Under the pieces are notes generated by a model. The model was given only the letters and a program-made list of their open reading frames with translations. It was not told where the DNA came from and made no database searches. Shown in pieces: positions 1 to 41,309 of a DNA stretch of 64,000 nucleotides. Source of the stretch: a virus; IMG/VR virus record IMGVR_UViG_3300028840_003687; one strand, 5' to 3'. Position numbers and translations under genes: made by a program. Positions within the stretch are counted from its first letter, which is position 1, and every line of letters begins with the position of its first letter.

Positions 1-25
1 CTACCGGGAGATCTTCTCCAACTGC

Positions 26-877
26 ATGGACGAGAAGGGCGAGATCGCAACGGAGATGCCCGAGGGCGAGTGGGGGACCGTGATCGAGATCGACGGCGAC
101 CTCTGCCACGCGGCGCATGACATCCGCTTCACGATCTTCCTCAACTCCCCGGTCATCAAGCACGTCATCGGCCTCGCGTCGCTTCACCAGGGGGGCAGCC
201 CGTACGCCTTCTATCGTGGCATCCGAGCCCACACGCACGAGTACCCGTCGATCTTCACCTGGAACCTGATCGACAGCGTCGCACTCACGGAGGACCGCAC
301 GCTCGCGTCGCCGTACTACCTGAACCGTGCGGTCACGGAGCTGATCCTGGGGCTCGACGACGAGGACCTCTTGGAGCAGCTGCTGCTCGCCGATCGGACG
401 ACCTACGAGGGCAACCTCAATTACGAGATCGTCGCCGTGGAGCCCAGCGAGGCGTTCATGCGCGTCTGCAGCAAGCACCGGACGAACCTGCACCTCAACG
501 GGACGGCCGGCTCGCTCTGGCGCTCGAAGCAGAGCTACACGGTTCTCTACGAGCCAGTGGAGCTGAGCCCGCTGAACGAGGCCGAGATCGACGAGGCGAT
601 CGGGCTGCTGCGGATTCTCGACTGCCCGCTGACGCGTGACGAGTTCATCGTCGTCGACAGCCTGGGCGGCGCCTTCTACGGCGTCTTTCGAGAGGGCTTC
701 ATCCTGATCGACCGGAAGACCCTGGAGAAGGGCCCCCGGTTCATCGCCAGCACGCTCTACGAGGAGTGGATTCACAAGTCCCATGGTCTGCGTGACTGCA
801 CCCGCGAGCTGCAGAACATGCTCTTCGACAAGCTGCTCTTCTTCGTCGACCGGACGCGACGGGCGGAACAGCCATGA
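26..877 (+). CDS. hypothetical protein (frame is open back to position 2, so the true start may lie upstream of the window)
   Basis: 283-aa ORF with GC3-rich codon usage; no stop between window start and the ATG at 26; no recognised domain. Confidence 0.5.
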   Translation: MDEKGEIATEMPEGEWGTVIEIDGDLCHAAHDIRFTIFLNSPVIKHVIGLASLHQGGSPYAFYRGIRAHTHEYPSIFTWNLIDSVALTEDRTLASPYYLNRAVTELILGLDDEDLLEQLLLADRTTYEGNLNYEIVAVEPSEAFMRVCSKHRTNLHLNGTAGSLWRSKQSYTVLYEPVELSPLNEAEIDEAIGLLRILDCPLTRDEFIVVDSLGGAFYGVFREGFILIDRKTLEKGPRFIASTLYEEWIHKSHGLRDCTRELQNMLFDKLLFFVDRTRRAEQP

Positions 878-1089
878 GCTGCGGCGACTGCAAGCACGTC
901 CGGACGGTCCTGCACGCCCCGTTCGTGCCCGAGACCGTGAAGGTCACGTTCCACTGGCGCCCGCCGTTCATCCGGCGCGAGGTGATCACCCACGATCGGA
1001 TCCGCATGGACTGGTGCCATCGCTATCCGAAGTCGGTGCTCGCGAAGCACAAGTGCGGAGAGTACGAGCCGATGGAGGCGAACTTATGA
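874..1089 (+). CDS. small hypothetical protein
   Basis: 71-aa ORF, ATGA start/stop overlap with upstream gene (translational coupling); several Cys/His. Confidence 0.4.
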   Translation: MSCGDCKHVRTVLHAPFVPETVKVTFHWRPPFIRREVITHDRIRMDWCHRYPKSVLAKHKCGEYEPMEANL

Positions 1090-1478
1090 GGATCCTCGTC
1101 TGTGGCAGCCGCGGCGCCAGCACGTCCTTCGTGGTCGATCGCTTGGACCACCTGCTAGGCCAGGTGTACAGGGGCACGAAGACGATCATCCACGGCGCAG
1201 CCCGGGGCGCCGACACCGGCGCTGGCATGCTCGCCCGCCACCTGGGCCTCTTCGAGGAGTCCTACCCGGCTGCCTGGGAGCGCGACGGGAAGGCCGCCGG
1301 CCCGATCCGGAACCAGCGCATGCTGGACGAAGGCGATCCCGACCGCGTCATCGCGTTCTGGGACGGGAAGTCGAAGGGCACGCTGGACATGATCTCGCGA
1401 GCGACCGCCGCGGGAATCCAGGTCTGGATCGAACCGCTCCAGAGCCAAGAGCCGGCGCAGGGGGAGCTGGGGCTATGA
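1087..1478 (+). CDS. SLOG-superfamily YspA-like protein (DUF2493-type phage protein)
   Basis: MRILVCGSR...IIHGAARGADTGAG...AGPIRNQRMLDEG...AFWDGKSKGT pattern matches the GSR / GAARGAD / GPxRNQ signature of DUF2493/SLOG proteins; ATGA overlap with the upstream ORF. Confidence 0.7.
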
Positions 1479-1690
1479 AGTCTTGCTGCGCCGAGCGCCT
1501 GCGTTACGGGATCGTCGCCGTCGAGAACAAAGCTGACGCATGCAACCTCTGCATGGGCCTCTGGTGGCTCGACCGCGGACAGACGGAGCTGCGCACCGGG
1601 TTCCCGGTGAAGGCCTATGAGGCGCTCGCTGAGGCACGCAAGCGCCTGGAGAACTACACCAAATGCCGAACGGAGAACTGCCTACGATGA
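1475..1690 (+). CDS. small Cys-rich hypothetical protein
   Basis: 71 aa, multiple Cys (CCAE, CNLC, CRTENC); overlaps neighbours by 4 nt. Confidence 0.4.
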   Translation: MKSCCAERLRYGIVAVENKADACNLCMGLWWLDRGQTELRTGFPVKAYEALAEARKRLENYTKCRTENCLR

Positions 1691-2001
1691 AAGGTCTCGA
1701 GCCGGCGATCCACGCGTTCCTGGAAGCCTGGGACGACCCGGACGTCATCTACGACAGCTACGAGGTGTTCGTGGCACCGATCCGCGAGGCGATCGAGCAC
1801 TACGACGAGCCCGAATACCAGTGCCCGCTCTGCGGCCAGGCGAAGGCCCAGCCGGCGACGGAGATTCTGCGTGCGATCAAGTCGTGCGAGGTCTGGTCGG
1901 CCGACGGCACGAGCTGGACCTTCCTCAACTCCAGCTACGAAGGTGACTTGGAGGCGATGCTGGAGGACATGCTCAAGGTCATCCGAGGAGAGGTCACCTG
2001 A
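1663..2001 (+). CDS. hypothetical protein with CxxC motif
   Basis: 112-aa ORF, acidic, CPLCG motif. Confidence 0.45.
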   Translation: MPNGELPTMKGLEPAIHAFLEAWDDPDVIYDSYEVFVAPIREAIEHYDEPEYQCPLCGQAKAQPATEILRAIKSCEVWSADGTSWTFLNSSYEGDLEAMLEDMLKVIRGEVT

Positions 2002-2068
2002 TTTTTTCTTCTAAAAGTTCGTCACCTTCCTGTACCCCCGGATACATACCGTCAGAGGTTAGGTTGAT

Positions 2069-2482
2069 ATGCTGAAGCACATGGTCACGTCCCCCATTCT
2101 CTACGCGACTCCGTTCGTCGGTCGGGATCAACCCCACAAGACCCAGGAAGGGAAGCTCTGGCTCTCGTGCGCGGAGTACGGGTTCTCGTTCTGCTGCGCT
2201 GAGATCGACGAGTCGTTCGGTCCGATCCAGCACGGCGAGATCGTCCGCATTGAGGTCCGGCTGAACGAGTTCCTGGGCTCGAAGCCCTTCCCCTACGACG
2301 AGGCTGGACGGATCTCCGAGCTGGCGGACCGGATGCTGAGCGAGATGTTCGGGCACGAGTATGGCACCTCGGAGTGGGAAGAGAGCTTCATCGAGGCATG
2401 CGGCCTTGACGAAGACGCGATCGAAAGCAGCCTGGGGTCCACTCTCCCAGGCGACCTTTACTACTGCGTGAGGCGGGTATGA
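2069..2482 (+). CDS. hypothetical protein
   Basis: 137-aa ORF, coherent codon usage, no recognised motif. Confidence 0.5.
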   Translation: MLKHMVTSPILYATPFVGRDQPHKTQEGKLWLSCAEYGFSFCCAEIDESFGPIQHGEIVRIEVRLNEFLGSKPFPYDEAGRISELADRMLSEMFGHEYGTSEWEESFIEACGLDEDAIESSLGSTLPGDLYYCVRRV

Positions 2483-2527
2483 GGTTCGAGCTAGTCGAGA
2501 AGACCGAGGCTCTCAGGGGGGAACACG

Positions 2528-2797
2528 GTGACGACGAAGCGCGTGGAGATGGCGATTCGGGAAGCGACGACTAGTCCAGTTGCTGGGCGTCGATACGTGC
2601 GCGTCACCGTCAGTAAGCCGTTCATGACGACTACTCGGGTGGTGCTTTCGCTGATCGCAGACGACCCGCCGAACGACCTGATCCGAATCTCGGAGAGCCC
2701 ACTGGGCAGTCTGCTGCTGGTGCAGGGATCAACCCAATACCTGCTAGCAAGCGGCCAGTGGTCAGACCTTCGACTAACGGAATACGAGGAGAACTAG
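2528..2797 (+). CDS. hypothetical protein
   Basis: 89-aa ORF ending 1 nt before the next start. Confidence 0.35.
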   Translation: MTTKRVEMAIREATTSPVAGRRYVRVTVSKPFMTTTRVVLSLIADDPPNDLIRISESPLGSLLLVQGSTQYLLASGQWSDLRLTEYEEN

Positions 2798-3223
2798 ATG
2801 CCCGGAAACAAGCTCTACAACCCCGGCCAGCCGTCGCTCGCGCAGCGGCTGAACCACGCGTCCCGCACGCGGCAGGCTGGCTACTCGAAGACGAACCGAG
2901 AGGAAGTGCTCCTCTTCAAGCGGCGCATCGCCGACGGCATGGATCCCGAGGAGGCCCGCAAGGGCACGAAGATCTCGAAGCGGATGGTCCCGGACATCCT
3001 CGCCGGCCGCACCTGGGCCTCGGTGATCCTGCTCGTGCTGATCGCGACGGTCACGATGGGCAACAGCTGCGTCGCAGGCAACGACTATACGGTCACCTGC
3101 CAGGGCATCAACTACCCGCTCTGTCGGGACGTGCCCTACGACTACCCCTGCCTCTGCCTGAGCGCGCCGGACGGCGTGACGTCGCAGCGGGCCCAGGAGC
3201 TGAGGTACCTGAACGACCGATGA
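2798..3223 (+). CDS. hypothetical protein (basic N-terminus, Cys-rich C-terminus)
   Basis: 141-aa ORF; ATGATG overlap with the next gene. Confidence 0.45.
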   Translation: MPGNKLYNPGQPSLAQRLNHASRTRQAGYSKTNREEVLLFKRRIADGMDPEEARKGTKISKRMVPDILAGRTWASVILLVLIATVTMGNSCVAGNDYTVTCQGINYPLCRDVPYDYPCLCLSAPDGVTSQRAQELRYLNDR

Positions 3224-3675
3224 TGGAGGAAATCTTCGGAGGGGAAGGTGGCAAGCTCAAAGTTGTGCTGAACCAGAAGTTCTGGACTGTGCCGCCAGAC
3301 GAGCAGGAGGACATCCTTCAGGAGTCCTACCTGATCGCGCTGCGGCGCGGCCTGCTGTACGAGCCGCTGACCTGGTGGGCTGCCACCACACTTCTCCTCG
3401 ACGCATATCGTTCTGTCCGAAAGCCCAGGGGGCAAAAGATGAAGCACTTCCCAACCGATCCCGACAAGCTCACTGAGCTGGCCGACCCGCCGAACCAGTG
3501 GGCGGACATGGAGGTCCGAAACAAGATGCTGAGTCCCGAAGAGCAGGAATTCCAGGAGTGGCTGGAAGGGCCGGAAAACGCGAATTTCAACGTCTCGCTG
3601 GCCACGGAGACCCGATTTCTGCTGAATTCGATGCCCTTCACCCTGCGGGAATTGGCTGGACACTGCAAGCGGTGA
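3220..3675 (+). CDS. hypothetical protein with weak sigma-70 region-2-like segment
   Basis: MMEEIF... start overlapping the upstream stop; the 'DILQESYLIALRRG' segment resembles ECF sigma region 2.1/2.2; no clear region 4 - low confidence on function. Confidence 0.4.
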   Translation: MMEEIFGGEGGKLKVVLNQKFWTVPPDEQEDILQESYLIALRRGLLYEPLTWWAATTLLLDAYRSVRKPRGQKMKHFPTDPDKLTELADPPNQWADMEVRNKMLSPEEQEFQEWLEGPENANFNVSLATETRFLLNSMPFTLRELAGHCKR

Positions 3676-3693
3676 TCATGCTACGATCCCGGT

Positions 3694-4248
3694 ATGGATG
3701 CAGCTCTCGGGTGGATCGGTGACCTCGTCAGATACTTCGCGCGCCTGGTGCCTCGGCTCCAACTCGTGCGCATTACCGAGCGGGCGGTCAAGTTCCGCCG
3801 CGCGAAAGCGCTGGAGGTCGGACCTGGGCTTCACTGGTGGTGGCCTGTGACGACCGAGATGGACGTCTACCCGGTGGTCCGGCAGATCGTGAGCCTCGAG
3901 CAGCAGATGATGCAGACCGAGGACGGGAAGACCTTGGTGGTCGATGGCGTCATCGTCTACTCGATCACCGACCTCTACACCTTCTGCGTCGAGAACCACG
4001 ACGCCGAGGAGAACATGGCGGAGCTGGCCCAGGCGGGCATGCGGAAGGCGGTGCTCTCGACGACCATGGAAGAGATCGGCGCCGGCCGTGCGAAGTTCGA
4101 CCATCGCCTGACGCGCGAGGCGCAGAAAAGTCTGAGTGGATTCGGCGTCGAGATCGAATCAATGCGACTCCAAAGCTGCGCGGAAGGCACTGTACATATA
4201 CACGCGGGCGCGGCCGTGACGATCGGCATCGCAGCAGGAGGCGAATAA
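3694..4248 (+). CDS. SPFH/band-7 (stomatin/prohibitin-like) domain protein
   Basis: Conserved SPFH core pattern (VDGVIVYSITD...AEENMAELAQAGMRKAVLSTTMEEI...FGVEIESMRLQ). Confidence 0.65.
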   Translation: MDAALGWIGDLVRYFARLVPRLQLVRITERAVKFRRAKALEVGPGLHWWWPVTTEMDVYPVVRQIVSLEQQMMQTEDGKTLVVDGVIVYSITDLYTFCVENHDAEENMAELAQAGMRKAVLSTTMEEIGAGRAKFDHRLTREAQKSLSGFGVEIESMRLQSCAEGTVHIHAGAAVTIGIAAGGE

Positions 4249-4469
4249 TGTACCGAGATCATCTGACCGGAGAAGTAAAGCGACGAGACCTGGGCTTCGC
4301 AGTCATGCTGGCCACGGCCATCATCTTCTGGGGAGGAGTCTGGGCATGCGTCGGATTCACCGTTGGGTACAGCAGCGAATCCGCAGCCGTTCGGAAGGCG
4401 TGCGAGCGCATGGTCAAGGATGGCTGGGAGGTCACGGTCGACTACTGCGTGACCGAGCTACGGCCATGA
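4248..4469 (+). CDS. small membrane protein
   Basis: 73 aa, one hydrophobic helix (FAVMLATAIIFWGGVWACVGF); start overlaps the stop of the SPFH gene. Confidence 0.45.
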   Translation: MYRDHLTGEVKRRDLGFAVMLATAIIFWGGVWACVGFTVGYSSESAAVRKACERMVKDGWEVTVDYCVTELRP

Positions 4470-4777
4470 CCAGGAGGCGGCCCAGCACGTTTTCGGTGAT
4501 CAGCTGGATCCTGGTGTTCGTGATGGCGCTCTACGTCTCGCTGGTCATCGTCCCCGACGCCCAGGCGAGCACTCCTCCGAAGCCCCGAGCGCGGCTGCTG
4601 CTTGAGATCCGGGACGAAAGGCTTCGGGTCTTCGAATACGAAACGGACAAACTGATGTGCCACATCTCGGTCATCGATGTTAAGATGATCGGGTCGCAGG
4701 CCAGCATAACATGCGTGAGAAAAGATGACCAAAAAGCATATCCCGAGCGTCGACTGTTTCTCGATCCGAGCCGCTGA
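4466..4777 (+). CDS. membrane protein (N-terminal TM helix)
   Basis: MTRRRPSTFSVISWILVFVMALYVSLVIV TM segment; ATGA overlap with the upstream gene. Confidence 0.45.
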   Translation: MTRRRPSTFSVISWILVFVMALYVSLVIVPDAQASTPPKPRARLLLEIRDERLRVFEYETDKLMCHISVIDVKMIGSQASITCVRKDDQKAYPERRLFLDPSR

Positions 4778-4872
4778 GCGACGCCGACAACTACTCAAAG
4801 AACGCGACGAGTTACTCGCCAAGCTGGCGGGACTGGCGAAGATGCGTCGATATATGAACGGAGAACGAGAAG

Positions 4873-5943
4873 ATGGCTGAAGAGGTGAAGTTCCACACGG
4901 TCAGCGACCGCGCCTTTCGGGCGATGAACCAGGCGGCGATCGACACCCAGGCGCTTCTCGAGGCCACGGAGAAGTCGCTCGACCGCGCGCTCCAGGAGAA
5001 CCTGAAGCTCCAGGAGCAGGTGGCCCGCCTGACGCGGGACGCTGAGACCGACGAGGAGATCATCAACGCGCTGGACGAGATGGTCGAGCAGCCTCCCACC
5101 GACGTCTGGGACAACACGGACGCGAAGCTCGTGAAGCAGCTGAACGGTGAGCTGGAGAAGGCCAACGACATGATCGTGCTGCTGATGGGCCAGCGAGAAT
5201 GGGGTGCGGCCACCGGTGCGCTGCTGGAAGACCCGGCCGTGAAGCGCGCCTACGACGATGTCCACCGTCGAAAGCCTGTGTCCGGACCGCCCGCCCCCGC
5301 GCGCGAGGAGATGATCGAGGCCGAGGCGACCGTACGACCGGCGCTCAAGGCCACCGAAGAGGCAGCCCAACGCATCGTCCAGAGCATGAACGCGGCGGAG
5401 GTCCAGATCGACAAGGACATCCTCGCGAGCTTCGCGCAGGACAAGACGATCAAGCGGCTGGACGACGAGATCATCATCGACGACCCGTTCGACGAGGTTT
5501 TCGGCACCGCAGCCCACGCGGCGAAGGCCGGCGAGCCTATCAGCGTGATCATCAACGATCCGCTCCGCCCCGACCGCGTGATCAAGCGACTCGACGACGA
5601 GCTGCAGGTCGCCGAGGTCAAGGTGGCCCTCGCCCAGGGCGATCGGGCGAAGATCCAGCAGACGCTGACGCAGACCCAGAAGGCCTGCCGGCGGTACAAG
5701 GCGCGGATCTCGAGACAGAACGAGCAGCTCGACGCGCTGAAGAAGCTCGCAGAGGCGGCGTTCCCGCTCTACGAGAAGCTCGTCTCTGCAATGGGGAGCG
5801 AGACCGTGATCAAGACGGAGCACGCGAAGCTCACCTACTTCTCCCAGAGCAGGGAGACCGAGCAGCAGTGCGTCGCCTTCCACAACGCTTTCAACGAGGC
5901 CGCTGAGGCCCTTACGCCCCCGCGGCGAGGAGATACGGAATGA
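4873..5943 (+). CDS. coiled-coil protein
   Basis: 356 aa, heptad-rich and acidic (LQENLKLQEQVARLTRDAETDEE...); GGAG-type RBS; the long antisense ORF 4795..5883 is judged a shadow. Confidence 0.55.
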   Translation: MAEEVKFHTVSDRAFRAMNQAAIDTQALLEATEKSLDRALQENLKLQEQVARLTRDAETDEEIINALDEMVEQPPTDVWDNTDAKLVKQLNGELEKANDMIVLLMGQREWGAATGALLEDPAVKRAYDDVHRRKPVSGPPAPAREEMIEAEATVRPALKATEEAAQRIVQSMNAAEVQIDKDILASFAQDKTIKRLDDEIIIDDPFDEVFGTAAHAAKAGEPISVIINDPLRPDRVIKRLDDELQVAEVKVALAQGDRAKIQQTLTQTQKACRRYKARISRQNEQLDALKKLAEAAFPLYEKLVSAMGSETVIKTEHAKLTYFSQSRETEQQCVAFHNAFNEAAEALTPPRRGDTE

Positions 5944-6176
5944 GTCAGAACAACGCGAGCAGTGGCGGAATCGGAATCTTCGGTCTGATGTTCGTGGCCC
6001 TCTTCGTCGGGAAGGTCTTCGAGATCGGCGCCGTCGCCAGCTGGTCCTGGTGGTGGATCACCGCGCCGCTCTGGGGCCCGATCGCCTTCGTGATCGTCGT
6101 CTTCCTCGTCATCGTTTTCGCGGTGGTCCTCTACGAAGCGTTCACGGGCAACAAGTCCGGCTTCCGGAACTACTGA
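5940..6176 (+). CDS. small membrane protein (2 TM helices)
   Basis: 78 aa with two strongly hydrophobic segments; ATGA overlap. Confidence 0.5.
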   Translation: MSQNNASSGGIGIFGLMFVALFVGKVFEIGAVASWSWWWITAPLWGPIAFVIVVFLVIVFAVVLYEAFTGNKSGFRNY

Positions 6177-6177
6177 C

Positions 6178-7164
6178 ATGGGCTACATCACCTACACGCA
6201 TGTGGAGCGACTCGGCCACCCGAACGTCGACGGCCTGCTGATCGGCGACTGCTACATCTTCCCGAAGCTCGACGGCGCGAACGCTGTGCTCTGGAGCGAT
6301 CGGGAGAAGGGCGGCGTATGCACAGGCTCGAGACGGCGCGACCTCACGGTAGAAGGCTCGGCCGACAACCACGGCTTCCGTGCGACCATGCAGGAGCTGT
6401 GGAATAACGGCGACCTGGAGTGGATCCAGGACACCTACGATGGCGTGAAGTTCCCGATCTTCTACGGCGAGTGGATGGTGCCGCACACTCTGAAGACCTA
6501 CCGGGAGGACGCCTGGCGTCGCTTCTACGTCTTCGATGCGCGATGCCCAGACACGGGACGCTACCTACACTACGACACCTGGGCTCCCCAGCTGATCGAG
6601 TATTACGGTCACGTCGTCGAGCCGCTCGCGAAGATCACGAACCCGACGGAAGAGGACATCGTCCGGATGCGGGACGTCATCAACACCTACCTGATCTCCG
6701 AGAACAGCGGAGTCGGGGAGGGCGTGGTCGTCAAGAACTACGACTTCGTCAACCACGTCGGCAAGACGGTCTGGGGCAAGAGCGTCCGCAACGACTTCAA
6801 GGAAGACAACAAGCGTGCGTTCGGGACCCCGGAGCATCAAGGCAGCTTCCAGGTCGAGTGCGCGATCGCCGAGGAGTACGTCACCCAGGCGTTCGTCGAG
6901 AAGACGCGAGCGAAGATCGTGATGGCCATGGCTGAGCAGGCCTGGAGAGACGATCCGGCGCTCCGGGACATGAGCGCTCAGCGGATCGCTGACGCTCAAC
7001 GGGGCTCTCTGATCCCCCGGCTGCTGGAGACCGTCTTCCACGAGCTGCTCGACGAAGAGACGGCGGCGTTCGTGAAGAAGCACAAGAACCCGACGATCGA
7101 CTTCAAGAAGCTGCGCGGGTTCGTTGTCGCGCAGGTGAAGAAGCACGCTGGCGACCTGTTCTAG
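6178..7164 (+). CDS. ATP-dependent RNA ligase, Rnl2-like nucleotidyltransferase (a minimal DNA ligase is not excluded)
   Basis: Covalent nucleotidyltransferase motifs in order: motif I KxDGxN (FPKLDGANAV), motif IV EGVVVK, motif V (GKTVWGK); ~330 aa with a non-OB C-terminal region, as in Rnl2. Confidence 0.6.
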   Translation: MGYITYTHVERLGHPNVDGLLIGDCYIFPKLDGANAVLWSDREKGGVCTGSRRRDLTVEGSADNHGFRATMQELWNNGDLEWIQDTYDGVKFPIFYGEWMVPHTLKTYREDAWRRFYVFDARCPDTGRYLHYDTWAPQLIEYYGHVVEPLAKITNPTEEDIVRMRDVINTYLISENSGVGEGVVVKNYDFVNHVGKTVWGKSVRNDFKEDNKRAFGTPEHQGSFQVECAIAEEYVTQAFVEKTRAKIVMAMAEQAWRDDPALRDMSAQRIADAQRGSLIPRLLETVFHELLDEETAAFVKKHKNPTIDFKKLRGFVVAQVKKHAGDLF

Positions 7165-7170
7165 GTCATC

Positions 7171-7249
7171 TGGGGCGTAGCTCAAGGGCAAGAGCACTGG
7201 CCATCTGCAGTATACGGCCAGCGACGCGGGTTGGAGTCCCGCCGCCTCA
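7171..7249 (+). ncRNA. tRNA-like element with non-canonical anticodon arm
   Basis: 7-bp acceptor stem TGGGGCG/CGCCTCA (one G-T), D-arm GCTC-AAGGGCAA-GAGC, T-arm GCGGG-TTGGAGT-CCCGC; the anticodon arm is a 6-bp stem CTGGCC/GGCCAG closing a 13-nt loop; T-loop is TTGG rather than TTCG; no CCA. Confidence 0.3.
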
Positions 7250-7285
7250 GTGCTAGCCTGGCGCCTCCCTACACAGGAGGCTGTC

Positions 7286-8017
7286 ATGCTGACCCGACTT
7301 CTCGCTCTCTTCGTCCTGCTCTTTGCGCTGCCCAGCGGGGCGGCGGTCTTTTCCGAGACCCAGAACTCGATCACGTTCACGTCGAACAACCCGTTCGGCT
7401 CGAGCCCGTCGCTCGTCGACCCGGCGTTCTTCGCCGAGTTCCCCTTGGGCGTGAACCCGTTCACGATCAGCTCCAGCTACGACGATGCGGCTTCGACGTT
7501 CGACCAGTGCTTCGGACCTGGCATCGACGACTGCTACCTGGTCACTACCTCGGGCGCGACGTTGTCGATCACGCTTGCCGGCGAGACGTTCACCCAGGCG
7601 GACTTCGACTTCACGAACGCATTCCTGACGCCAGCCGAGGCGAACAGCTTCGACCCGATCGACGGCGCGGTCTTCCCTGCGCTGGTGACGACCGACGTCG
7701 CCGGAATCAGCTCGGTGAACACGCTTGGCACGGCCAACGTGAACCGCTTCGGCCTGCTCGATCGGTGGTCGCTCGAAGGCGTCGTCCTCCAGGTGAGCCT
7801 ACCTGAGGCGTCGAACCTGCTGCCCGATCCGCTCGGCTTCGACGGCTTCAACTTCTACACGCAGGGCGTCGATCGCACCGGCGCGTTGATCATCTACGAC
7901 AACGTGCTGGACCAGACCGGCTACGCGTTCATCACGAACCCGGAGCCCGGGGCGGCGGTGCTGATGGGCCTGGGGCTCATGGGGCTCGCCGGGCTCAGCA
8001 AGCGCAAGCGGGTCTGA
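7286..8017 (+). CDS. secreted PEP-CTERM domain protein (predicted exosortase substrate)
   Basis: AGGAGG RBS 7 nt upstream; N-terminal signal peptide (MLTRLLALFVLLFALPSGAAVF); C-terminus ...ITNPEPGAAVLMGLGLMGLAGLSKRKRV is PEP motif + TM helix + basic cluster. Confidence 0.65.
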   Translation: MLTRLLALFVLLFALPSGAAVFSETQNSITFTSNNPFGSSPSLVDPAFFAEFPLGVNPFTISSSYDDAASTFDQCFGPGIDDCYLVTTSGATLSITLAGETFTQADFDFTNAFLTPAEANSFDPIDGAVFPALVTTDVAGISSVNTLGTANVNRFGLLDRWSLEGVVLQVSLPEASNLLPDPLGFDGFNFYTQGVDRTGALIIYDNVLDQTGYAFITNPEPGAAVLMGLGLMGLAGLSKRKRV

Positions 8018-8024
8018 TTTCGAC

Positions 8025-8309
8025 CTAGTTCGGGAGTGCGGTGTTCACGTCTGCGAGGTCGAGCGACTGCCCCTGGGCCTGCAGCAGCGCCACGTAGATC
8101 GGCTCCACCAGCGGCGTTCCCGACAGCACGAGCGCCATCAGCATCGCGTGTGAATGGCCGATCGAGACGGCGTCCATGTCCCCCGGCAGGTAGAGGCAGA
8201 GGCTGCCGTCAGCTCGAGTCACGATCGCGGCGTCGCCTTCGCTCAACTCGATCTGGCTCTCTTCGCTCCACGTCCGCTTCGTGACTGTCGTGTAGTCCTG
8301 ATTCTTCAA
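8025..8309 (-). CDS. hypothetical protein
   Basis: 94-aa ORF on the - strand between the two PEP-CTERM genes; acidic. Confidence 0.35.
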   Translation of the reverse strand: MKNQDYTTVTKRTWSEESQIELSEGDAAIVTRADGSLCLYLPGDMDAVSIGHSHAMLMALVLSGTPLVEPIYVALLQAQGQSLDLADVNTALPN

Positions 8310-8414
8310 CTTCTCGGTCCAGGGCTCGCCGATCGCGTCGGTAGCCTTTGTGGCCGTGCCTCCCGCCCCTGGGCATGTCCCGGTGGAGCTGGCGAGACCG
8401 GCGTTTGATTGCCT

Positions 8415-8921
8415 TCAGCGTGTCGTCCGACGCCATCCCGCCACCGCCAGGCCCAGGATACCAAGAACGAGCAGGAGCAGCATCCCAGGTTCGGGCACGT
8501 ACTCCTTCGAGGTCTGCATCGGAAGGTGGTTGCTGTTTCCGCTCTCCACGACCGCGTGCTCCGCCTCGAATTCGGCGAGCTGCTCCGGCGTCCATGTCTG
8601 AACGGCCCGCAAGGCGTTGAACCCTTCCGGGTAGGGCTTGCCGGCGTGCGCCTTGCAGACGAGCGGCCCTTCGTCGCCTCCGCCGTAGCGGATCGTTTCG
8701 AGGCGGCCCAGGAGCGTCCCATCGGGCTGCTCGCGGATGTTCGTGAGGAAGTTGCAGCGGCGCCCGTCGACGCTGTGCTGGCTCGGGTAGCAGCAGCTCC
8801 AGGCTTTGACGACGCGCTCGTCGCCCTCGACTGCCGGCGGCTGGTACAGGTGGACGTCGAACTTCTCGTGGACGGCCGGGATCTCAGGCCAGTCTTCCGG
8901 GTGGGCTTCACTGTGGGGCAT
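8415..8921 (-). CDS. PEP-CTERM-like C-terminally anchored protein (no obvious signal peptide)
   Basis: Genuine GC3-rich codon usage; C-terminus ...YVPEPGMLLLLVLGILGLAVAGWRRTTR is PEP + TM + RR; Cys-containing middle region (WSCCYP...RRCNF). Confidence 0.5.
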   Translation of the reverse strand: MPHSEAHPEDWPEIPAVHEKFDVHLYQPPAVEGDERVVKAWSCCYPSQHSVDGRRCNFLTNIREQPDGTLLGRLETIRYGGGDEGPLVCKAHAGKPYPEGFNALRAVQTWTPEQLAEFEAEHAVVESGNSNHLPMQTSKEYVPEPGMLLLLVLGILGLAVAGWRRTTR

Positions 8922-9237
8922 TGCAGGCTCCTGTCGTGTCGATGTATAGGGTAGCGTGTCCGCCTACGGTCACATCGTCTGTGTCCCACCGCTCGGTGCC
9001 CAGCGCCTGCTGGCCGTCGCTGCGGGACCCGTTGATTCCGATCTCCGCCCCGCTGATGCAGGGGTTGTGGTGGCATGCGACCTGAAGAACCGCTAGCGCT
9101 CCGAGGGTCATCCACGTCATCCAGGTGATGCGGTCTCCACCGAACATCCGATGCCCGGTCTCCGCAACGCATGCGATGGTCAGGACGAACGGCAGGCCGT
9201 AGATCACGACGCCCAGGAAGTGCAGTGTCGATTCCAT
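8908..9237 (-). CDS. small membrane/secreted protein
   Basis: MESTLHFLGVVIYGLPFVLTIACVA hydrophobic N-terminus plus a second hydrophobic segment; ATGA overlap with the primase stop. Confidence 0.45.
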   Translation of the reverse strand: MESTLHFLGVVIYGLPFVLTIACVAETGHRMFGGDRITWMTWMTLGALAVLQVACHHNPCISGAEIGINGSRSDGQQALGTERWDTDDVTVGGHATLYIDTTGACNAPQ

Positions 9238-11588
9238 CAGAAGATGTCCTCCTGCTCCGGGCCGGGAAGTTCGATCTCCTCTTCGGGCTCTTCCCCGACC
9301 CAATCACCCTGACCATAGACCTCGACCCACCTCTCGCGGCAATCCTCGAGGTCCATGAACTGGTAGACCTTCCGACGGCCCGTCGAGACCGACGAGTTGC
9401 CCTTCTTCACCGGAGCGACCTTGCTCAGGAAGCGACCCCAGTGAACGCGCGTCTTCGGGTTTCGGAAGCTCTTGCGCTTCGTGTACTCCAGGTAGTCCTG
9501 GTAGAGGGTGTCAGTCAGCACGACCTGCGGCCACGGCACGCTGCCAGGATCGTCGTCGAGCATGCGGCCCTCGACCAGCTTGTCGAACCACCACTGTTCC
9601 TCGGTGTCGTAGCTCTGCATCTGCTGCTCCTGCAGCGCCATCGTCGTCGGAACGTGGCGGACATCAAAGCCGGAAAGATCGTAGTTGAGCAGGTTGTAGA
9701 GAAACCCCTCTCGCCCTCCGTTGTCCATCTGCTGTTGAATCGCACCGAAGTACTCAGCGTCCCGGGCCCGTGCATCGCTCACGTCAAGAACGAGGAAGCG
9801 GCGCTCGCTCCGACTGTGGGCCGGAACGACCCAGTCATGGTTCGAGGCCATCATGAGGTGCAGGCAGTTAGTCGCGGTTTCGATGTCGACGCCCTTGGCC
9901 TCGATCTGCATCGTATCCTCGGTGACGATCATCTTCAGCACGCCTTCGTGCTTCTTGTCGCCGGCGTAGAAGGCCTCGTCCGCGAAGATGAAGACGCAGT
10001 CCCGGAGGTGGGCGTTGAAGTTCCCGACGAGCTGGCTGGAGTGTCCGACCTGCATGTAGTGTCGGCCCAGGAGGGCCCCGAGCTGCTTCGCGAGGAACGA
10101 CTTCCCCGTCCCCTGCTGGCCGCGCATCACGATTGCCGTCTGCCCAGGCTCGCCGGGATGCTGGATCATTCGGGCCATCCAGCCCATTACGTATTCGAAG
10201 TAGGTGTCCTTGCCTTGGCAGACGTTTTCGCGGATGTGCTCTTCGAGCTTGTCCCACCGCCCCGGGCGTGCTTCACAGGAGAAGCCTCTCCAGAGGTTGT
10301 ACGAGTCCGGCACTTCCTGGTTCGGAACGAAGATGACCCGCTTGAACTGTCGCCGGTCCGGATGCTTCAGCCACCAGTCGCCCAGGGGCATGTACTTCGG
10401 GTTCCCGTCCTTGTCGGACCCGACCTCCACCCGTCGGTTCATGTGCGCGTTCTTGAAGTCGCCGAAGCTCATTGACGAGAGGCGCGAGCGCCGGAGGATC
10501 GGATCGTCCAGCTCTTCGATCACGCGGCAGCGTCCCCCGAAGTTCTCGATCACCGAGTAGCGGTCATTCATCGCCGCCAGGTTCGGATCGATCGCGAATT
10601 CCTTCGCCTTCCCGATCTGGCGTTTCGCATAGCTTTCGACGTTCGCGCCCTTGTCGAGCACTGAGTCGCTGATGCCGAAGTCCGGGTCCGTGATCAGCGA
10701 GAAGATGACCTCGTCGGGCACGTTGCAGCGAACAAGGTTGCAGACGCAATCGAATAGCCAGCTCGATCGCGAGTCGTCTTCCTTGGGCGGTTCGTCGGGA
10801 TGCCGCCCCTGGACGATGATGACCTTCACACGGTCGGGCACGTCCCACTCGTCCAGCTCGTCCATCGTGGCGATGCGGGCAATGTTTCCGCTGATCTCGA
10901 CCGTCTGGGACGACGCTCCGAACAGCTCGTTCGTCTGCGTGGGCGCGGCCGGCGTGAACTGCGAGAGCGAGTAGATCCGGCTCTGGTCGAAGACCTCGAC
11001 CTTCGCCAGCTCCTCGCTCCGACCCTTCGCGCGCTTCTTCGCGTCGGGGACGTTGACGGTCCCTGGCAGCCGCATGATGCGATCGACGTTGTGGCAGTTG
11101 TCCGCGCCGAAGAGCAGCTCGAGCTGCAGGTTCCAGCGCTTCGCGGTCTCGGCCAGGCCGACGTCGCCGTTGATCTCGAACTCCTCATCGAGCCGCCAGA
11201 AGCCTTGGTAGCCGCCGCCCGAGAAGATGACCGCCGTGGGCTTCGGAACGCCGGCCGGCGGATCCAGCAGCTGGGTCAGGGCGCGCTCTCGCTCTGCTTG
11301 GAGATCCTGACCGTCACGCGGGTCGACGTCGACGTGCAGCCAGCGCATGCCCCGCATGTCCTCGCGGAGTGCCTTCTTGTCCATCGGTCCACGCGTCGGG
11401 TTGACGTGGAAGTAGATGTTGCGGGTGCCGTTGTACTTCTCGATCCACTCCGCGCATTCGGTGTCCGTCTCGGCCTCGAACGTCGCGGTGGTGATCGCCT
11501 TGCGATCCACGGCGATCGCAGTCAGCACCCAGAGCCCAGAGGGCTCGTACTGCTTCAGGAACTCGATTGCTGCCGGGGTATCGGTCAT
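9237..11588 (-). CDS. bifunctional primase-polymerase / superfamily-3 (D5/P4-type) replicative helicase
   Basis: 783 aa; N-terminal prim-pol-like region; C-terminal SF3 helicase with Walker A GQQGTGKS and Walker B IFADEA. Confidence 0.8.
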   Translation of the reverse strand: MTDTPAAIEFLKQYEPSGLWVLTAIAVDRKAITTATFEAETDTECAEWIEKYNGTRNIYFHVNPTRGPMDKKALREDMRGMRWLHVDVDPRDGQDLQAERERALTQLLDPPAGVPKPTAVIFSGGGYQGFWRLDEEFEINGDVGLAETAKRWNLQLELLFGADNCHNVDRIMRLPGTVNVPDAKKRAKGRSEELAKVEVFDQSRIYSLSQFTPAAPTQTNELFGASSQTVEISGNIARIATMDELDEWDVPDRVKVIIVQGRHPDEPPKEDDSRSSWLFDCVCNLVRCNVPDEVIFSLITDPDFGISDSVLDKGANVESYAKRQIGKAKEFAIDPNLAAMNDRYSVIENFGGRCRVIEELDDPILRRSRLSSMSFGDFKNAHMNRRVEVGSDKDGNPKYMPLGDWWLKHPDRRQFKRVIFVPNQEVPDSYNLWRGFSCEARPGRWDKLEEHIRENVCQGKDTYFEYVMGWMARMIQHPGEPGQTAIVMRGQQGTGKSFLAKQLGALLGRHYMQVGHSSQLVGNFNAHLRDCVFIFADEAFYAGDKKHEGVLKMIVTEDTMQIEAKGVDIETATNCLHLMMASNHDWVVPAHSRSERRFLVLDVSDARARDAEYFGAIQQQMDNGGREGFLYNLLNYDLSGFDVRHVPTTMALQEQQMQSYDTEEQWWFDKLVEGRMLDDDPGSVPWPQVVLTDTLYQDYLEYTKRKSFRNPKTRVHWGRFLSKVAPVKKGNSSVSTGRRKVYQFMDLEDCRERWVEVYGQGDWVGEEPEEEIELPGPEQEDIF

Positions 11589-12001
11589 CGTTGGAGAAGC
11601 TCGTCTAGATCAGCCACGGCGATCTTGCCGTAGGAGTGCAGTAGGGCTCGTTCGATCAGCTCGTCGCGAGGGACTCTGCCGACGAATTCGTGGGCGGTCA
11701 GTCCATCAAAGAGCAGATTTTCTACGACGCCGCGAGAACCGACTCGTAGCAGAAGCCACGCGCCACCGCCCGCATTCCAGCGGCGACGCAGCCAGTTGCG
11801 CTGGTGCTGCTTGTACTTCGGGAGCCGCAGCGGTGTGTCGTTCTGCTTGGGCCAGCAGGGCGCGTACTTCAGCTCGAGCCATCCGCGCAGGCACTCGACG
11901 TCGGGGCACCCAGGGTTCGCGGAATTCTCGACGGCCTGAGGATCGGAGCGGAGGCGCCTCAGCGCCTTGATCACCTGGGCGCGGTAGTTGTACTCACCCA
12001 T
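11585..12001 (-). CDS. putative VRR-NUC / PD-(D/E)xK-type nuclease
   Basis: Start taken at MGEYNY (ATG 2 nt after the upstream stop; the ORF frame extends to 12058); GCPDVECLRGWLELKY resembles the PD...ExK motif of VRR-NUC domains. Confidence 0.4.
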   Translation of the reverse strand: MGEYNYRAQVIKALRRLRSDPQAVENSANPGCPDVECLRGWLELKYAPCWPKQNDTPLRLPKYKQHQRNWLRRRWNAGGGAWLLLRVGSRGVVENLLFDGLTAHEFVGRVPRDELIERALLHSYGKIAVADLDELLQR

Positions 12002-12386
12002 CGTCGCTCTCCCGATACGGGCAGCAGTGCTCGCATCGCGTGTGAGGGTCCGGCTCACCGTCGCGCGGACAGTTACGGCAGGTGCATCCTCCTGGGCTGA
12101 TGTTCGCGCTCGTGAGCGGCTGCACCACCGGCTCCCCGGCCTCGTAGGCGGCGAGAGCTTCGCGGATCTCCGCCTCCGCCGATTGGTAGCCCGCCACCCA
12201 CTCTGTCACGGTCTCAGTGTCCGCCGATCGGGCCACGTTCATCGAGCGCACCGCCTTCGCCAACCGGTCGGCAAGGGCGATCTGCGTTGCCATCCGAGCA
12301 CGAACAGCTTCTCCAGCAGCCACCCGAGCCTCCAGTTCCTTGATCCGCTTGTTCCGGGTCACCATCCATAGGTGGTCAACGGACAT
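11994..12386 (-). CDS. hypothetical protein with C-terminal Cys cluster
   Basis: 130 aa; helical N-terminal part; GGCTCRNCPRDG...CEHCCPY C-terminus. Confidence 0.45.
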   Translation of the reverse strand: MSVDHLWMVTRNKRIKELEARVAAGEAVRARMATQIALADRLAKAVRSMNVARSADTETVTEWVAGYQSAEAEIREALAAYEAGEPVVQPLTSANISPGGCTCRNCPRDGEPDPHTRCEHCCPYRESDDG

Positions 12387-12876
12387 TACTCACCTCCCCG
12401 GCCTCGTAGGCGGCGAGCTTGGCGCGGTAGTCGGCCCGCTTCGAGTCGGACTCCGCGAGCTTGTCCGCAAGGTCGGCGACTCTGGCGCGGGCTTCGTCGC
12501 GTTCTTCGACGAGCAAGTCGATCACCTGCGAAGGCAGCGCGGGCTTGCGCTTCGCCTCGTCAAGCTCCCGCTCCAACTCCGCCACCCGAACGCGGGCCTC
12601 GTCGCGTTCGCGTTCTGTCTCACACACGTGGCACGGCCCCTGCCAATCTGGTGGCAGCATGTGAGCGAAGTTCTCGCACCACTTCGCTTTTCGCTCCCGC
12701 TCCAACTCCGCCACCCGAGCCTCGGCGGCTTCGTGCAGACCGCGTAGCCGCTCGATCTCGGCCTGGGACAATCGAAGCTCGATGTCCCGCTCGCGCAGCT
12801 TCTTGCCGTGGTCTACGCGGAGGGCCAGTTCCGCCTCGGCAGCTTCGGCACGCTTCTTCCACGTCTCGTCACTCAT
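12376..12876 (-). CDS. coiled-coil protein
   Basis: 166 aa, repeated ELERE/AELERE heptad-like segments, central CHVCE. Confidence 0.5.
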   Translation of the reverse strand: MSDETWKKRAEAAEAELALRVDHGKKLRERDIELRLSQAEIERLRGLHEAAEARVAELERERKAKWCENFAHMLPPDWQGPCHVCETERERDEARVRVAELERELDEAKRKPALPSQVIDLLVEERDEARARVADLADKLAESDSKRADYRAKLAAYEAGEVSNVR

Positions 12877-13057
12877 CGTCTTCGCCCCTTTCGTTTCCCT
12901 CGGCCACGGGGCGCGGAGAGGATTTCTCCGTAGGCTCCGCTGCGGGCGGAGGGGTGGAGCATTTTAGGCAGCCAGTTGGTGACATATCTTTCGGAACTGG
13001 AAACTCATAGCCGCACACGATGCAGCGCCATATCCAGCCGCTCTCCCATACGCTCAC
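12869..13057 (-). CDS. small zinc-ribbon protein
   Basis: 62 aa with CIVCG...CLKC (two CxxC pairs). Confidence 0.45.
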   Translation of the reverse strand: MSVWESGWIWRCIVCGYEFPVPKDMSPTGCLKCSTPPPAAEPTEKSSPRPVAEGNERGEDDE

Positions 13058-15135
13058 ATCGAATCTCCCCAGCTCGAGCCCAGCTCCACGTCGACCTTCG
13101 ACGGGACCGTGAGCTGCGGGATGCAGTGCTCCATGATCTCGGCCGCGGCGTTCGCGTCGCCTTCACCATGGAAGCTGCCTGTGATCTCGTCGTGGACCTG
13201 GAGCTGCAGGTAGTGACCGTCGCGATGAACGTCGACCACGGCCTTCTTCGTCTGGTCCGCTGCGCTGCCCTGGATGACGCGGTTGAGCGCCTTCTGGGTC
13301 CAGTCGTACTTGCCATCCTTCCCGACCGGGAAGTGGCAGTGGCGGCCCAGGATCGTGATCACGTAGCCGCGCTCGTTCGCCTTGTGCTGGGCGAACTTCG
13401 ACAGCTCTCTCACGAATGGCAGCTTCTCGTCGAACGTCTCCAGCAGCTTGCGGCCTTCCGCGCCGGCGCCCTCCATCAGCCGCCCTCCGCACTCCTGGGC
13501 GTACGCCGCTGCCGACGTGCGGTCTTCGATGTCGAAGTACTTGGTGTCCGCCCACGCCTTGCCGTAGACGACCCACGCCTTGGGCAGGCCCAGCTTCACG
13601 CAGAGCTTCGCGCCGCCCAGGCCGTAGATCTTGCCCAGGAAGATCTCCTTCGCGGGCTTGCGCTCGATCCCGGCCATCTCCGCGACCATTGTATGGTTGT
13701 CCGTATTTCGGTCGCGCCGGTACTGCTCCGCTGCCGCCACGGCTGCGTTGCGTGCGTGCTGGCTGATGCCTTTGCCCTTGCGAAGATCTCCGACCGGGCA
13801 GTTCTCCGCGTAGTGCATCATCATCCGCGGCTCCTGCTGGCTGTAGTCCAGGGAGCCCCAGGTCATGCCTTCCTCAGGCAGGTAGATCGCACGCCACATC
13901 TTGGCGAACTCGTCGCGCGCCGGCTGCTGCTGCAGGTTCGGCTTCTCGCTGGACAGGCGGCCGTAGCGAGCGCCCGATCCGTCGTCCAGGCTCGCCTCGT
14001 CGGTCGAGTCGTTGCGCCGGAGCTGGTTGAACGTCGTGTGGATGCGGCCGTTCACCATGTGCTCGCGGATCGAGGCGACGAAGGTGGTCCGGAGCTTGTT
14101 CGTCTTCCGAGCCCAGAGGATCCGCTCCGCGACCGGGTGATCGATCGCGTGCAGGGTCTCCTGCTTGATCTCCGGCTGGCCCTTCGAGGTCTTCTTGAGG
14201 GTCACCCCAATCGCTTCGAGCGCCGGAGCGACCTGGCTGGGCGCCATGATCCCCTTCCCCTTGGCGGTCCCGATCCTCACCCCCGTGAGGCGGTGGATCT
14301 CGTCCAGGGCGGCCTGCTCTTCCCCGCGGGCCCACTGCTCGACCTGGGCCAGGCGGTCCTGATCGATCCGCACGCCACGGCGCCGCATCAGCGTGAGGAT
14401 GGGCTGGACCTGGCACTCGAGATTGAAGATGTCCCAGAGGCCCGCCTCTTCGATTCGCGCCTCCTGGCGCCGCAGAATGGCCAGGGGCTCGTCCACGTCT
14501 CCGAGCCCATACGGGCCCACGAAACGCGCGGGGAGCTTGTGGAGCCCCGCCTTCGGATCGACGTTGAAGTGCTCTGCAGCCGTCCGCAGGAGCGCCTCGT
14601 CCTTGCCCTCGCGGCCGTACCGCTGCGAGAGGGCCTGGAGGCCGTAATTGAACTGCAGCTCGTCCAGGAGCGGCTCAGCGACCCCGATATCGCGCCAGGT
14701 GCAGCCGCCCTCGATGAAGTCGGCGCCTTCCTGGGCCAGCCAGTCGCAGTCGTAGCCCAGGTTGCAGCCGACGAGCTGCCCCCGGAACGATCGGGCCTGG
14801 GCCTCGATGTACGCCAGGGCCGCCTGGGGATTCTCGACGTTGTCGCCCCCCTCGTGGAAGAGCGGGACGTAGAACCCGGGCCCGCCCTCGATCCGGAACG
14901 AGTAGCCGACCAGCCGGGAGTCGTCGCGGCGGACGCCGGGGCCGAGCTTCTTCAGGTGTGGGTCGCAGGTCTCGACGTCGATCGCGACTCGCGCGCTGGC
15001 GTTCGTCGGCCAGTCCGGTAGCTCACCCAGGCGGGGCGGGCGCCAGTCGGACTCCGGCACGAACATCGGCAGCTGGGTCTCGGCTTCGTTCGTCTGGTCC
15101 GCGTGCTTCCGGCCGCTACTCCTGGGCTTCGCCAT
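13054..15135 (-). CDS. family-A DNA polymerase (Pol I-like) with 3'-5' exonuclease domain
   Basis: Exo I (IDVETCD), Pol motif A (DYSQQEPR), motif C (QVHDEI), KIYGLGGAKL; 693 aa. Confidence 0.9.
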   Translation of the reverse strand: MAKPRSSGRKHADQTNEAETQLPMFVPESDWRPPRLGELPDWPTNASARVAIDVETCDPHLKKLGPGVRRDDSRLVGYSFRIEGGPGFYVPLFHEGGDNVENPQAALAYIEAQARSFRGQLVGCNLGYDCDWLAQEGADFIEGGCTWRDIGVAEPLLDELQFNYGLQALSQRYGREGKDEALLRTAAEHFNVDPKAGLHKLPARFVGPYGLGDVDEPLAILRRQEARIEEAGLWDIFNLECQVQPILTLMRRRGVRIDQDRLAQVEQWARGEEQAALDEIHRLTGVRIGTAKGKGIMAPSQVAPALEAIGVTLKKTSKGQPEIKQETLHAIDHPVAERILWARKTNKLRTTFVASIREHMVNGRIHTTFNQLRRNDSTDEASLDDGSGARYGRLSSEKPNLQQQPARDEFAKMWRAIYLPEEGMTWGSLDYSQQEPRMMMHYAENCPVGDLRKGKGISQHARNAAVAAAEQYRRDRNTDNHTMVAEMAGIERKPAKEIFLGKIYGLGGAKLCVKLGLPKAWVVYGKAWADTKYFDIEDRTSAAAYAQECGGRLMEGAGAEGRKLLETFDEKLPFVRELSKFAQHKANERGYVITILGRHCHFPVGKDGKYDWTQKALNRVIQGSAADQTKKAVVDVHRDGHYLQLQVHDEITGSFHGEGDANAAAEIMEHCIPQLTVPSKVDVELGSSWGDSM

Positions 15136-15535
15136 TGGAGTCCCAGGGGTTCGGGAAGGCGATCAGCGACTGCACGAGCAGCTGAGCGTGCGCGAAGGAC
15201 ACGGCCGTCCAGCGCGTGGCGAAGATCGAGATCACGATGCGCTCGCGGAAGTCCGTCACCCCGTTGACGTCGAGGAAGCGGTTCACGGCCATCTGGCCGG
15301 CGCCTTCCGAGCGCGGCTCGCGCCCGTCCTCGTGGTGCAGCTCTTCGAGCTTCATGATGTAGTGCAGCACCTTGCGGAGATCCTGCGCCCCGCCCTTGGC
15401 GCGCCAGCGCGTCACGTACTTGACGATGTTGCCTTCGATGAATCCGAGCCCGTGCCGCTCGATGAAGTCCCAGGGCTGCTCGTCTTTCGTGCTCTTGTAG
15501 TGGTCTCCCCCTACCTGTACTTCGTTCGCGCTCAT
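15116..15535 (-). CDS. DUF3310-domain phage protein
   Basis: N-terminal VQVGGDHYK...PWDFIE...IVKYVTRW matches the conserved GG-HY block of DUF3310. Confidence 0.55.
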   Translation of the reverse strand: MSANEVQVGGDHYKSTKDEQPWDFIERHGLGFIEGNIVKYVTRWRAKGGAQDLRKVLHYIMKLEELHHEDGREPRSEGAGQMAVNRFLDVNGVTDFRERIVISIFATRWTAVSFAHAQLLVQSLIAFPNPWDSNGEAQE

Positions 15536-15792
15536 GCTGCCTCCGGTTTGTTTGTTGCCGGGATCTCTATGTTCCCGACGGTTTCGTCATCTTCCATGAT
15601 CATCTTCGCGTACATCACCGTGTGATAGGTGGTGTAGAGCTGGGCGTGCCGCCTGGAGAGGCTGGTCAGAGCGAAGAGAACCTTCGTCTCATGCACCGCG
15701 GCCGCGTACTCGTCGGTTCCCTCAATAAAGGCGTAGAACCAGTCGTGACGCTCCAGCCTCTCCCAGTAGGCGACGAGATCAGTCTTCGCCAT
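15532..15792 (-). CDS. hypothetical protein
   Basis: 86-aa ORF, 4-nt overlaps on both sides. Confidence 0.45.
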   Translation of the reverse strand: MAKTDLVAYWERLERHDWFYAFIEGTDEYAAAVHETKVLFALTSLSRRHAQLYTTYHTVMYAKMIMEDDETVGNIEIPATNKPEAA

Positions 15793-40353: not shown

Positions 40354-40365
40354 GAAATCGTCCTG

Positions 40366-41232: not shown

Positions 41233-41309
41233 CGCTGGGGCCCAGCATAGCCCATTCGAGCCATGCTGGACCCCGCGTTGGCAGTCGTCGGGTCAAGCCC
41301 GACTGCGTC

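Follow-up and report, generated by a model that had tools for sequence, protein, structure and literature searches.

Do tailed phages carry proteins addressed to the exosortase machinery of their hosts, and if so, do such proteins act together? The question is raised by IMG/VR virus record IMGVR_UViG_3300028840_003687, a 64-kb stretch of DNA from a sediment metagenome (the whole of which is called the window here), in which an initial annotation had picked out two genes, designated A and B below, as a convergent pair encoding PEP-CTERM proteins that would modify the envelope or the exopolysaccharide layer of the host, for superinfection exclusion or to modulate biofilm or adsorption. We consider it probable that A is a secreted surface protein processed by a host exosortase and that B is a membrane-anchored protein of the envelope, acting with the product of its neighbour D in a cassette confined to phages. 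PEP-CTERM proteins carried by a phage, including a conserved form that lacks a signal peptide and is encoded in such a cassette, have apparently not been reported so far. The two genes and their relevant parts are located as follows.

7286-8017, + strand: gene A, 243 amino acids (aa), the last gene of the + strand block
7286-7342, + strand: predicted Sec signal peptide of A (residues 1-19, cleavage between SGA and A, by inspection and hydropathy)
7937-8014, + strand: PEP-CTERM tail of A (residues 218-243; TIGR02595 match on residues 219-242)
8415-8921, - strand: gene B, 168 aa, acidic and predicted to be beta-rich, with a C-terminal PEP-CTERM-type anchor
8418-8498, - strand: PEP-CTERM-type tail of B (residues 142-168: VPEPG, helix, WRRTTR)

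The PEP-CTERM tag serves Gram-negative bacteria in the sorting of surface proteins. PEP-CTERM proteins are defined by a PEP motif, a helix of about 14 residues and a basic cluster, placed at the C-terminus; about 97% of them have a signal peptide, and they co-occur with EpsH/exosortase, an outer membrane and exopolysaccharide genes (PMC1569441). We scored the two tails with two hidden Markov models (HMMs), NCBIfam TIGR02595 (24 positions long, cut-off 16 bits) and Pfam PF07589 (gathering score 20.7). Both C-termini passed TIGR02595, A with 18.6 bits and B with 18.0 bits, as the initial annotation had anticipated, and B also passed PF07589 with 21.5 bits. A strict pattern, consisting of PEP, 12-24 hydrophobic residues and a basic residue at the C-terminus of an open reading frame (ORF), was found in 2 of the 873 stop-to-stop ORFs of the window, namely A and B; by chance, a mean of 0.01 such ORFs per 64-kb sequence was obtained from 100 Markov-1 random sequences.

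Gene A is preceded by an AGGAGG ribosome-binding site. The N-terminus of its product, MLTRLLALFVLLFALPSGA followed by AVF after the predicted cleavage site, comprises one basic residue, a hydrophobic core (Kyte-Doolittle 19-residue mean of 2.27) and an AXA-type site that is conserved in the family, and the classical signal peptide ascribed to A earlier was confirmed on these grounds. The protein ends in NPEPGAAVLMGLGLMGLAGLSKRKRV, where NPEP is followed by the hydrophobic stretch GAAVLMGLGLMGLAGL and then by SKRKRV and the stop codon. A therefore displays every sequence-level feature of a PEP-CTERM protein, the signal peptide being judged by inspection and hydropathy.

Gene B, preceded by an AGGAG ribosome-binding site, encodes a protein that begins with MPHSEAHPEDWPEIP and ends with VPEPGMLLLLVLGILGLAVAGWRRTTR, in which VPEP is followed by the hydrophobic stretch GMLLLLVLGILGLAVAGW and by RRTTR and the stop codon. 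No hydrophobic segment lies ahead of residue 141, and an in-frame stop 14 codons 5' of the Met (stop-to-stop ORF 8415-8963) means that there is no hidden signal peptide in B; the claim that B lacks one was correct. Besides the window, B homologs were found in four related phage contigs (L001, L009, L018 and L023), with 28-51% identity. None of these five homologs has a signal peptide, and in-frame stops lie 1-14 codons 5' of the conserved Met. The tail is as well kept as any part of B: six of the 21 invariant columns fall in it (P143, E144, G146, L151, G154 and W163), and the VPEPG-helix-WRR arrangement is kept in four of the five, the third Pro being replaced by Val in L001. PF07589 was passed in three of the four homologs tested (window 21.5, L009 21.3 and L018 24.5 bits). 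The net charge is -2 to -4 before the helix and +3 to +4 after it, which is the pattern of a PEP-CTERM anchor with the N-terminus outside and the C-terminus inside. B has all sequence-level features of a PEP-CTERM protein but the signal peptide. A zinc-binding or disulfide-bonded fold for B, built on H3, H7, C43 and C89, was considered and discarded, since the L023 homolog lacks H3, H7 and C89.

No exosortase-like polytopic ORF was present on the coding strand in the window or in the examined parts of the related phage loci, and the initial annotation was right that the host would have to supply the enzyme. A candidate ORF of 382 aa and five hydrophobic segments (40102-41250, + strand), considered as an exosortase or membrane protein, was rejected as the antisense shadow of a real gene at 40366-41232 (- strand), with no Pfam match. 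The window itself is a siphovirus-type tailed double-stranded DNA phage genome, with PHROGs matches to primase, PolA, ribonucleotide reductase, helicase, tape measure, portal and TerL, and further matches to a small terminase, a DNA methyltransferase and an Rz-like spanin.

26550-26960: Rz-like spanin, by PHROGs

The nearest phages in culture are only distantly related to this one: TerL shares 51% identity with that of Shewanella phage S0112, and the primase is about 48-50% identical to those of siphoviruses of Pseudomonas, Rhizobium and Pseudanabaena. The hosts of these nearest phages by TerL and primase are Proteobacteria, plus one cyanobacterium. Judging from them, the host is likely to be Gram-negative, and the Rz-like spanin encoded by the phage indicates a host with an outer membrane.

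We then explored how widely A occurs and in which surroundings. A 5.8-billion-protein index contained only two relatives of A, with 71% and 67% identity, and a HMMER profile search of 1.84 billion representative proteins returned 36 matches at E<=1e-3, about 10 of them full-length (233-290 aa). The family is rare and unnamed, and consists of secreted PEP-CTERM proteins of about 235-255 aa. All full-length relatives have a signal peptide, with PAxA before the cleavage site and (A/T)xF after it, a core of the form SxYDD...QC..P...DCY in which the two Cys are invariant, and a PEP-CTERM tail. In the tail, P219, E220 and G230 are invariant and P221 nearly so among 12 family members (alignment A6), 11 of which match TIGR02595; the bacterial-looking members score 22-26 bits.

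The genomic contexts of A differ strongly from one another. A lies on phage contigs syntenic with the window in L001-L004, and relatives of A are carried by the phage-like contigs L005-L007, the nucleotide similarity of L005 to the window being confined to gene A. In L009, which belongs to the same phage group as the window, A is 42% identical and lies on the opposite strand relative to its neighbours, while the flanking genes have 72-79% DNA identity. Other relatives occur in a different type of phage (L012-L014, with Terminase_6C and Portal_Mu) or within bacterial-looking tandem arrays of PEP-CTERM genes (L010 and L015-L017). In L018, an IMG/VR relative on a 70.6-kb contig, A is missing and the junction holds a tRNA-Lys and a 49-aa gene instead. 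The contigs of P0017 and P0028 are too short to inform on gene context. Scans of IMG/VR with A, P0005 and P0007 found nothing, and viral contigs were retrieved only by probes made from D, B and C. Judging from the differing contexts, the inversion in L009, the absence from L018 and the tRNA-Gln beside it in the window, A behaves as an accessory gene that moves horizontally and is exchanged among phages, and its site is a variable hot spot.

Two more ORFs, unrelated to A and B, encode proteins that have a clear signal peptide and end in a PEP-like anchor; they lie at 793-1545 of L001 and 1800-2459 of L005. Their tails are YVPEPSVASGTALLVMALVAGCRMRRS and YIPEPALHFGLAVGVVMLASIR, respectively, and both fall under the HMM cut-offs, the former with 13.1 bits and the latter with no match. 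The phage group may have more exosortase-type clients than A and B.

Gene B belongs to a cassette, D-B-C, which was found here only in phage contigs. By tblastn and alignments, the cassette lies directly 3' of the primase gene in the window and in L001, L009, L018 and L023, five lineages in all.

8025-8309, - strand: gene C, 94 aa, acidic, with no signal peptide and no known domain
8908-9237, - strand: gene D, encoding a putative lipoprotein of small size; its last 14 nucleotides (nt) are shared with the start of B
9237-11588, - strand: primase/helicase-type replication protein (DUF5906; phrog_1829, E 1e-81)

C is the best-conserved member of the cassette (52-73% identity to its homologs) and B the most diverged. 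D and B overlap by 14 nt in the window and in L001 and are separated by a 2-nt gap in L009 and L018. The D homologs have a lipobox, LGC or LSC (alignment A10) and LTLGC in L023, and share the core C...WDxDDxTxGG..T...D.TG.C. The D gene of the window has a 39-codon N-terminal extension from the primase stop codon, with its own hydrophobic stretch and an LTIAC motif; all D homologs start, with a lipobox, at the equivalent of Met40 (9120), and translation of the upstream 39 codons in the window is uncertain. T5 Llp and phi80/N15 Cor are small, early and fast-evolving lipoproteins of superinfection exclusion, which reach the cell surface, where they act, through export pathways of the host. The putative lipoprotein D is of this general kind, but it has no sequence similarity to them (no match in PHROGs), and the pathway here would be exosortase, not Lol.

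Two other arrangements of D and B were examined and rejected. A frameshift fusion lending B the lipoprotein signal of D is contradicted by the frame offset, which varies by lineage (14-nt overlap versus 2-nt gap), and by each B starting at the conserved Met, with a ribosome-binding site before it in the window. Two-component spanins of the Rz/Rz1 type do not fit either, given that the helix of B is C-terminal, D precedes B, the cassette lies behind the primase gene and an Rz-like spanin is encoded elsewhere. Known families gave no further guide to the four products. A, B and C had nothing significant against PDB sequence profiles and no tblastn match among 50,697 GenBank phage records, and none of A, B, C and D had a match in PHROGs v4 or among the defence-system proteins of PADLOC; C had no Pfam match, and D no family match in profile searches.

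The two units meet at the convergence of the + and - strand blocks, with a conserved RNA ligase gene on the far side.

6178-7164, + strand: RNA ligase (PF09414, 50.8 bits), the conserved gene flanking the junction on the other side
7170-7251, + strand: tRNA-Gln (anticodon CTG, by ARAGORN), 34 nt 5' of gene A

The same junction in related phages holds a tRNA-Lys and a tRNA-Asn in L001 (10923-11080) and a tRNA-Lys in L018 (6157-6232). Its gene content is variable, gene A and a 49-50 aa gene each being present or absent, and the junction looks like a tRNA-bearing insertion hot spot for accessory genes. The + block ends with A (stop at 8017) and the - block with gene C (stop at 8025), so that A is abutted by C and not by B; the initial annotation, which had placed both genes at the junction of the two blocks, was right that they lie near the convergence point but not that B adjoins A. 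A and B are unrelated genes. L018 has D-B-C but no A, and L005 and L012 have A but no D-B-C. When related phages were compared for the gene pair, A and B were found together within one phage group, but each also occurs without the other. The notion of a dedicated convergent pair was accordingly abandoned: A is mobile (inverted in L009, absent from L018 and present in L005 and L012, which lack B), and B belongs to D-B-C. On the gene content of these loci, A and D-B-C are two separate units that are chance neighbours in one phage group. Scans of 6900-9400 for sigma-70 promoters and terminators gave nothing informative, and a candidate sigma-54 promoter 5' of A was rejected on inspection, as the GC expected in its -12 element is missing from TGGCGC-N5-TACA.

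Compared with the known PEP-CTERM/exosortase system (EpsH, Xrt; PMC1569441), both A and B have the tripartite tail, with a helix of about 14-20 residues, and both pass TIGR02595. A further resembles most PEP-CTERM proteins in its signal peptide and in having no other recognisable domain. They differ from that system in being carried by a tailed phage, with no linked exosortase or exopolysaccharide locus, and in the lack of a signal peptide in B. PepA of Zoogloea and Aquincola (NF033554; PMC9850573) resembles A in its comparable size (about 260 aa), signal peptide and PEP-CTERM tail, whereas the SxYDD/QC...DCY core is A's own. Assignment of A as a PepA equivalog was rejected: A scored 22.0 bits with NF033554 and all 12 of 12 family members 14-38 bits, against a cut-off of 80, and the scores were mostly driven by the tail. 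A PEP-CTERM domain is also present in HOG10 of the IME1 virus-like elements of Dehalococcoides (bioRxiv 10.64898/2026.09.15.751708). This is the sole mention in the literature searched of such a domain on a virus-like mobile element; unlike the phage studied here, IME1 is an integrative, filamentous or budding-virus-like element, and its host has no outer membrane. The literature and databases searched held no description of the A and B families or of tailed-phage PEP-CTERM proteins.

Based on these likenesses, we propose the following course of events. A would be made during infection from the + strand block, on the RNA-ligase side, and exported by Sec with removal of its signal peptide. It would then be held in the inner membrane by its C-terminal helix, with PEP at the periplasmic face, where exosortase meets the PEP motif according to a proposed model (PMC1569441). 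The host exosortase would process A and pass it to the cell surface or the exopolysaccharide matrix, where A would alter the surface of the infected cell, most plausibly by tying down or masking exopolysaccharide or receptors, and further phages or the phage's own progeny would be kept from unproductive adsorption. Overexpression of PepA converts soluble exopolysaccharide into cell-bound exopolysaccharide (PMC9850573), and this binding of exopolysaccharide to cells makes a role of A in remodelling the matrix or surface plausible. Export by Sec and processing by a host exosortase, altering the surface or matrix of the infected cell, is the most likely fate of A. B would be a membrane-anchored early protein acting with the putative lipoprotein D at the envelope, and this is its most likely role whichever topology it adopts.

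Several alternatives were weighed against this proposal. That A and B are host DNA, introduced by mis-assembly or as the host flank of a prophage, is hardly credible: nothing was found in support of it, the genes sit between the phage RNA ligase and primase genes, and both GC content and GC at third codon positions (GC3) are even across the junction. An identical A protein was found on five contigs of 50-200 kb, and the gene order recurs in related phage contigs of other samples, including two IMG/VR viral contigs; A and B are phage-borne and not part of an assembly chimera, which upholds the earlier assignment. In addition, the window matches JGI contig Ga0180437_10000572 (L008, 69,649 bp) exactly, with window positions 1-18017 aligning from its position 16346. 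Since the window is 64 kb long but is aligned from 16346 of L008, it must stem from another assembly of that genome (about 69.6 kb), one that is permuted differently, and this points to a genome that is circular or terminally redundant and probably complete. We also regard it as very unlikely that the PEP-CTERM matches are spurious, produced by HMMs that are short and carry little information, and that A and B are generic membrane-anchored phage proteins with no link to exosortase. The E-values are indeed modest (2e-4 to 4e-3 per protein), the model has just 24 positions, and A scores 18.5 bits with PF07589, just under the gathering score. However, the tail is found throughout the A family, whose bacterial-looking members are the higher-scoring ones within PEP-CTERM arrays, and the PEP motif is conserved in both families against the random expectation of 0.01 per window.

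For B, three readings were compared. B may be an unusual exosortase client without a signal peptide, with its N-terminus outside and its C-terminus inside. Lacking a signal peptide, it may instead be tail-anchored and face the cytoplasm, as an ordinary inner-membrane protein with a cytoplasmic N-domain whose likeness to PEP-CTERM arose by convergence, leaving A as the only real PEP-CTERM protein; its role might be, for example, to block the entry of superinfecting DNA or to anchor a complex, in an early cassette beside replication genes. We take this possibility seriously, at somewhat below an even chance. It agrees with the absence of a signal peptide from all five homologs, with no space for one upstream, with the TPEV of the L001 homolog, with HMM scores just 2-4 bits over the cut-offs, and with the fixed position of the cassette behind the primase gene, where it stands without A in L018. 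Bacterial tail-anchored proteins ending in a helix and RR are known, namely those of the ElaB/YqjD type. B resembles them in lacking a signal peptide, in having one helix, placed within its final 30 residues, and in closing with a few basic residues; unlike them, it has a conserved PEP(G) before the helix and passes the PEP-CTERM HMMs, and no homology was detected. Against an ordinary tail anchor speak a P-E-x-G that is invariant, and a PEP kept in four of five homologs, at only 28-51% overall identity, flanking charges that match the N-out, C-in orientation of true PEP-CTERM anchors, the very low chance expectation of the motif and a partner, D, that is a putative lipoprotein facing the periplasm. 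The third reading, suggested in the initial annotation, in which B, perhaps with D and C, is a decoy or inhibitor whose tail docks at the exosortase without being processed or released, so that host PEP-CTERM sorting and matrix assembly are blocked during infection, appears unlikely to us. In its favour, the PEP-CTERM-type tail of B is conserved on a protein that has no signal for export, and B evolves fast (28-51% identity) beside the better-kept C (52-73%), a pattern typical of host-interacting proteins. Against it, if B is a tail anchor with its N-terminus inside, PEP would face the cytoplasm and not the periplasmic side, where the active site is proposed to lie (PMC1569441), and A on the same phage would need a working exosortase. 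It is likewise improbable that B, at the centre of a dedicated cassette, takes over the host exosortase as decoy, inhibitor or adaptor and shuts down or redirects the sorting of PEP-CTERM proteins and the anchoring of the matrix during infection, with the secreted client A added in some phages as a substitute for host proteins on the cell surface.

Some observations weigh against our preferred interpretation of A as a host-processed surface protein and of B as an envelope protein acting with D. The interpretation presupposes an exosortase in the host. A signal peptide, present in about 97% of PEP-CTERM proteins (PMC1569441), is missing from B, whose L001 homolog, with TPEV in place of PEP, fails both HMMs, and A stays under the Pfam gathering score. 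AlphaFold2 gave an unusable model of A (3 sequences; predicted local distance difference test (pLDDT) score of 32.7) and a weak one of B (2 sequences; pLDDT 55.6), and Foldseek of the B model against PDB found nothing below E 0.26. Two scans of GTDB genomes with A-family alignments yielded no confirmed relative of A. The adjacency of A and D-B-C is limited to one related phage group, and so it gives no independent sign of joint action.

Other features of the genome were recorded beside these genes. The + strand block contains an SPFH/Band_7 membrane-scaffold protein (3694-4248), which is kept with the RNA ligase in L001, L009 and L018, and, just 5' of the RNA ligase gene, phrog_1374 (5940-6176, + strand), a small Trp-rich membrane protein of unknown function with 2-3 hydrophobic helices. 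In L001, a 100-aa multi-helix membrane protein (9620-9922) lies between the RNA ligase gene and gene A. The GC content, 64% overall, dips to 50% at 53.0-53.5 kb and is then 53-63% up to 59.5 kb. This low-GC region (53000-59500) holds small + strand ORFs, mostly without family matches, and is flanked by a small-terminase-like gene (53792-54412, - strand) and a + block with the DNA methyltransferase (61701-62822).

PEP-CTERM/exosortase sorting is widespread in matrix-forming environmental Gram-negative bacteria, and its biochemistry and purpose are poorly defined. If phages do bring their own exosortase clients, viruses could rewrite the protein content of flocs and of the biofilm matrix during infection, with effects on adsorption, superinfection and the stability of aggregates in sediments and sludge. 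The phage genes would then also serve as small, portable exosortase substrates, and possibly inhibitors, for dissecting recognition. The B family, with its tail and no export signal, would provide a natural test of whether the tail alone suffices to engage exosortase.

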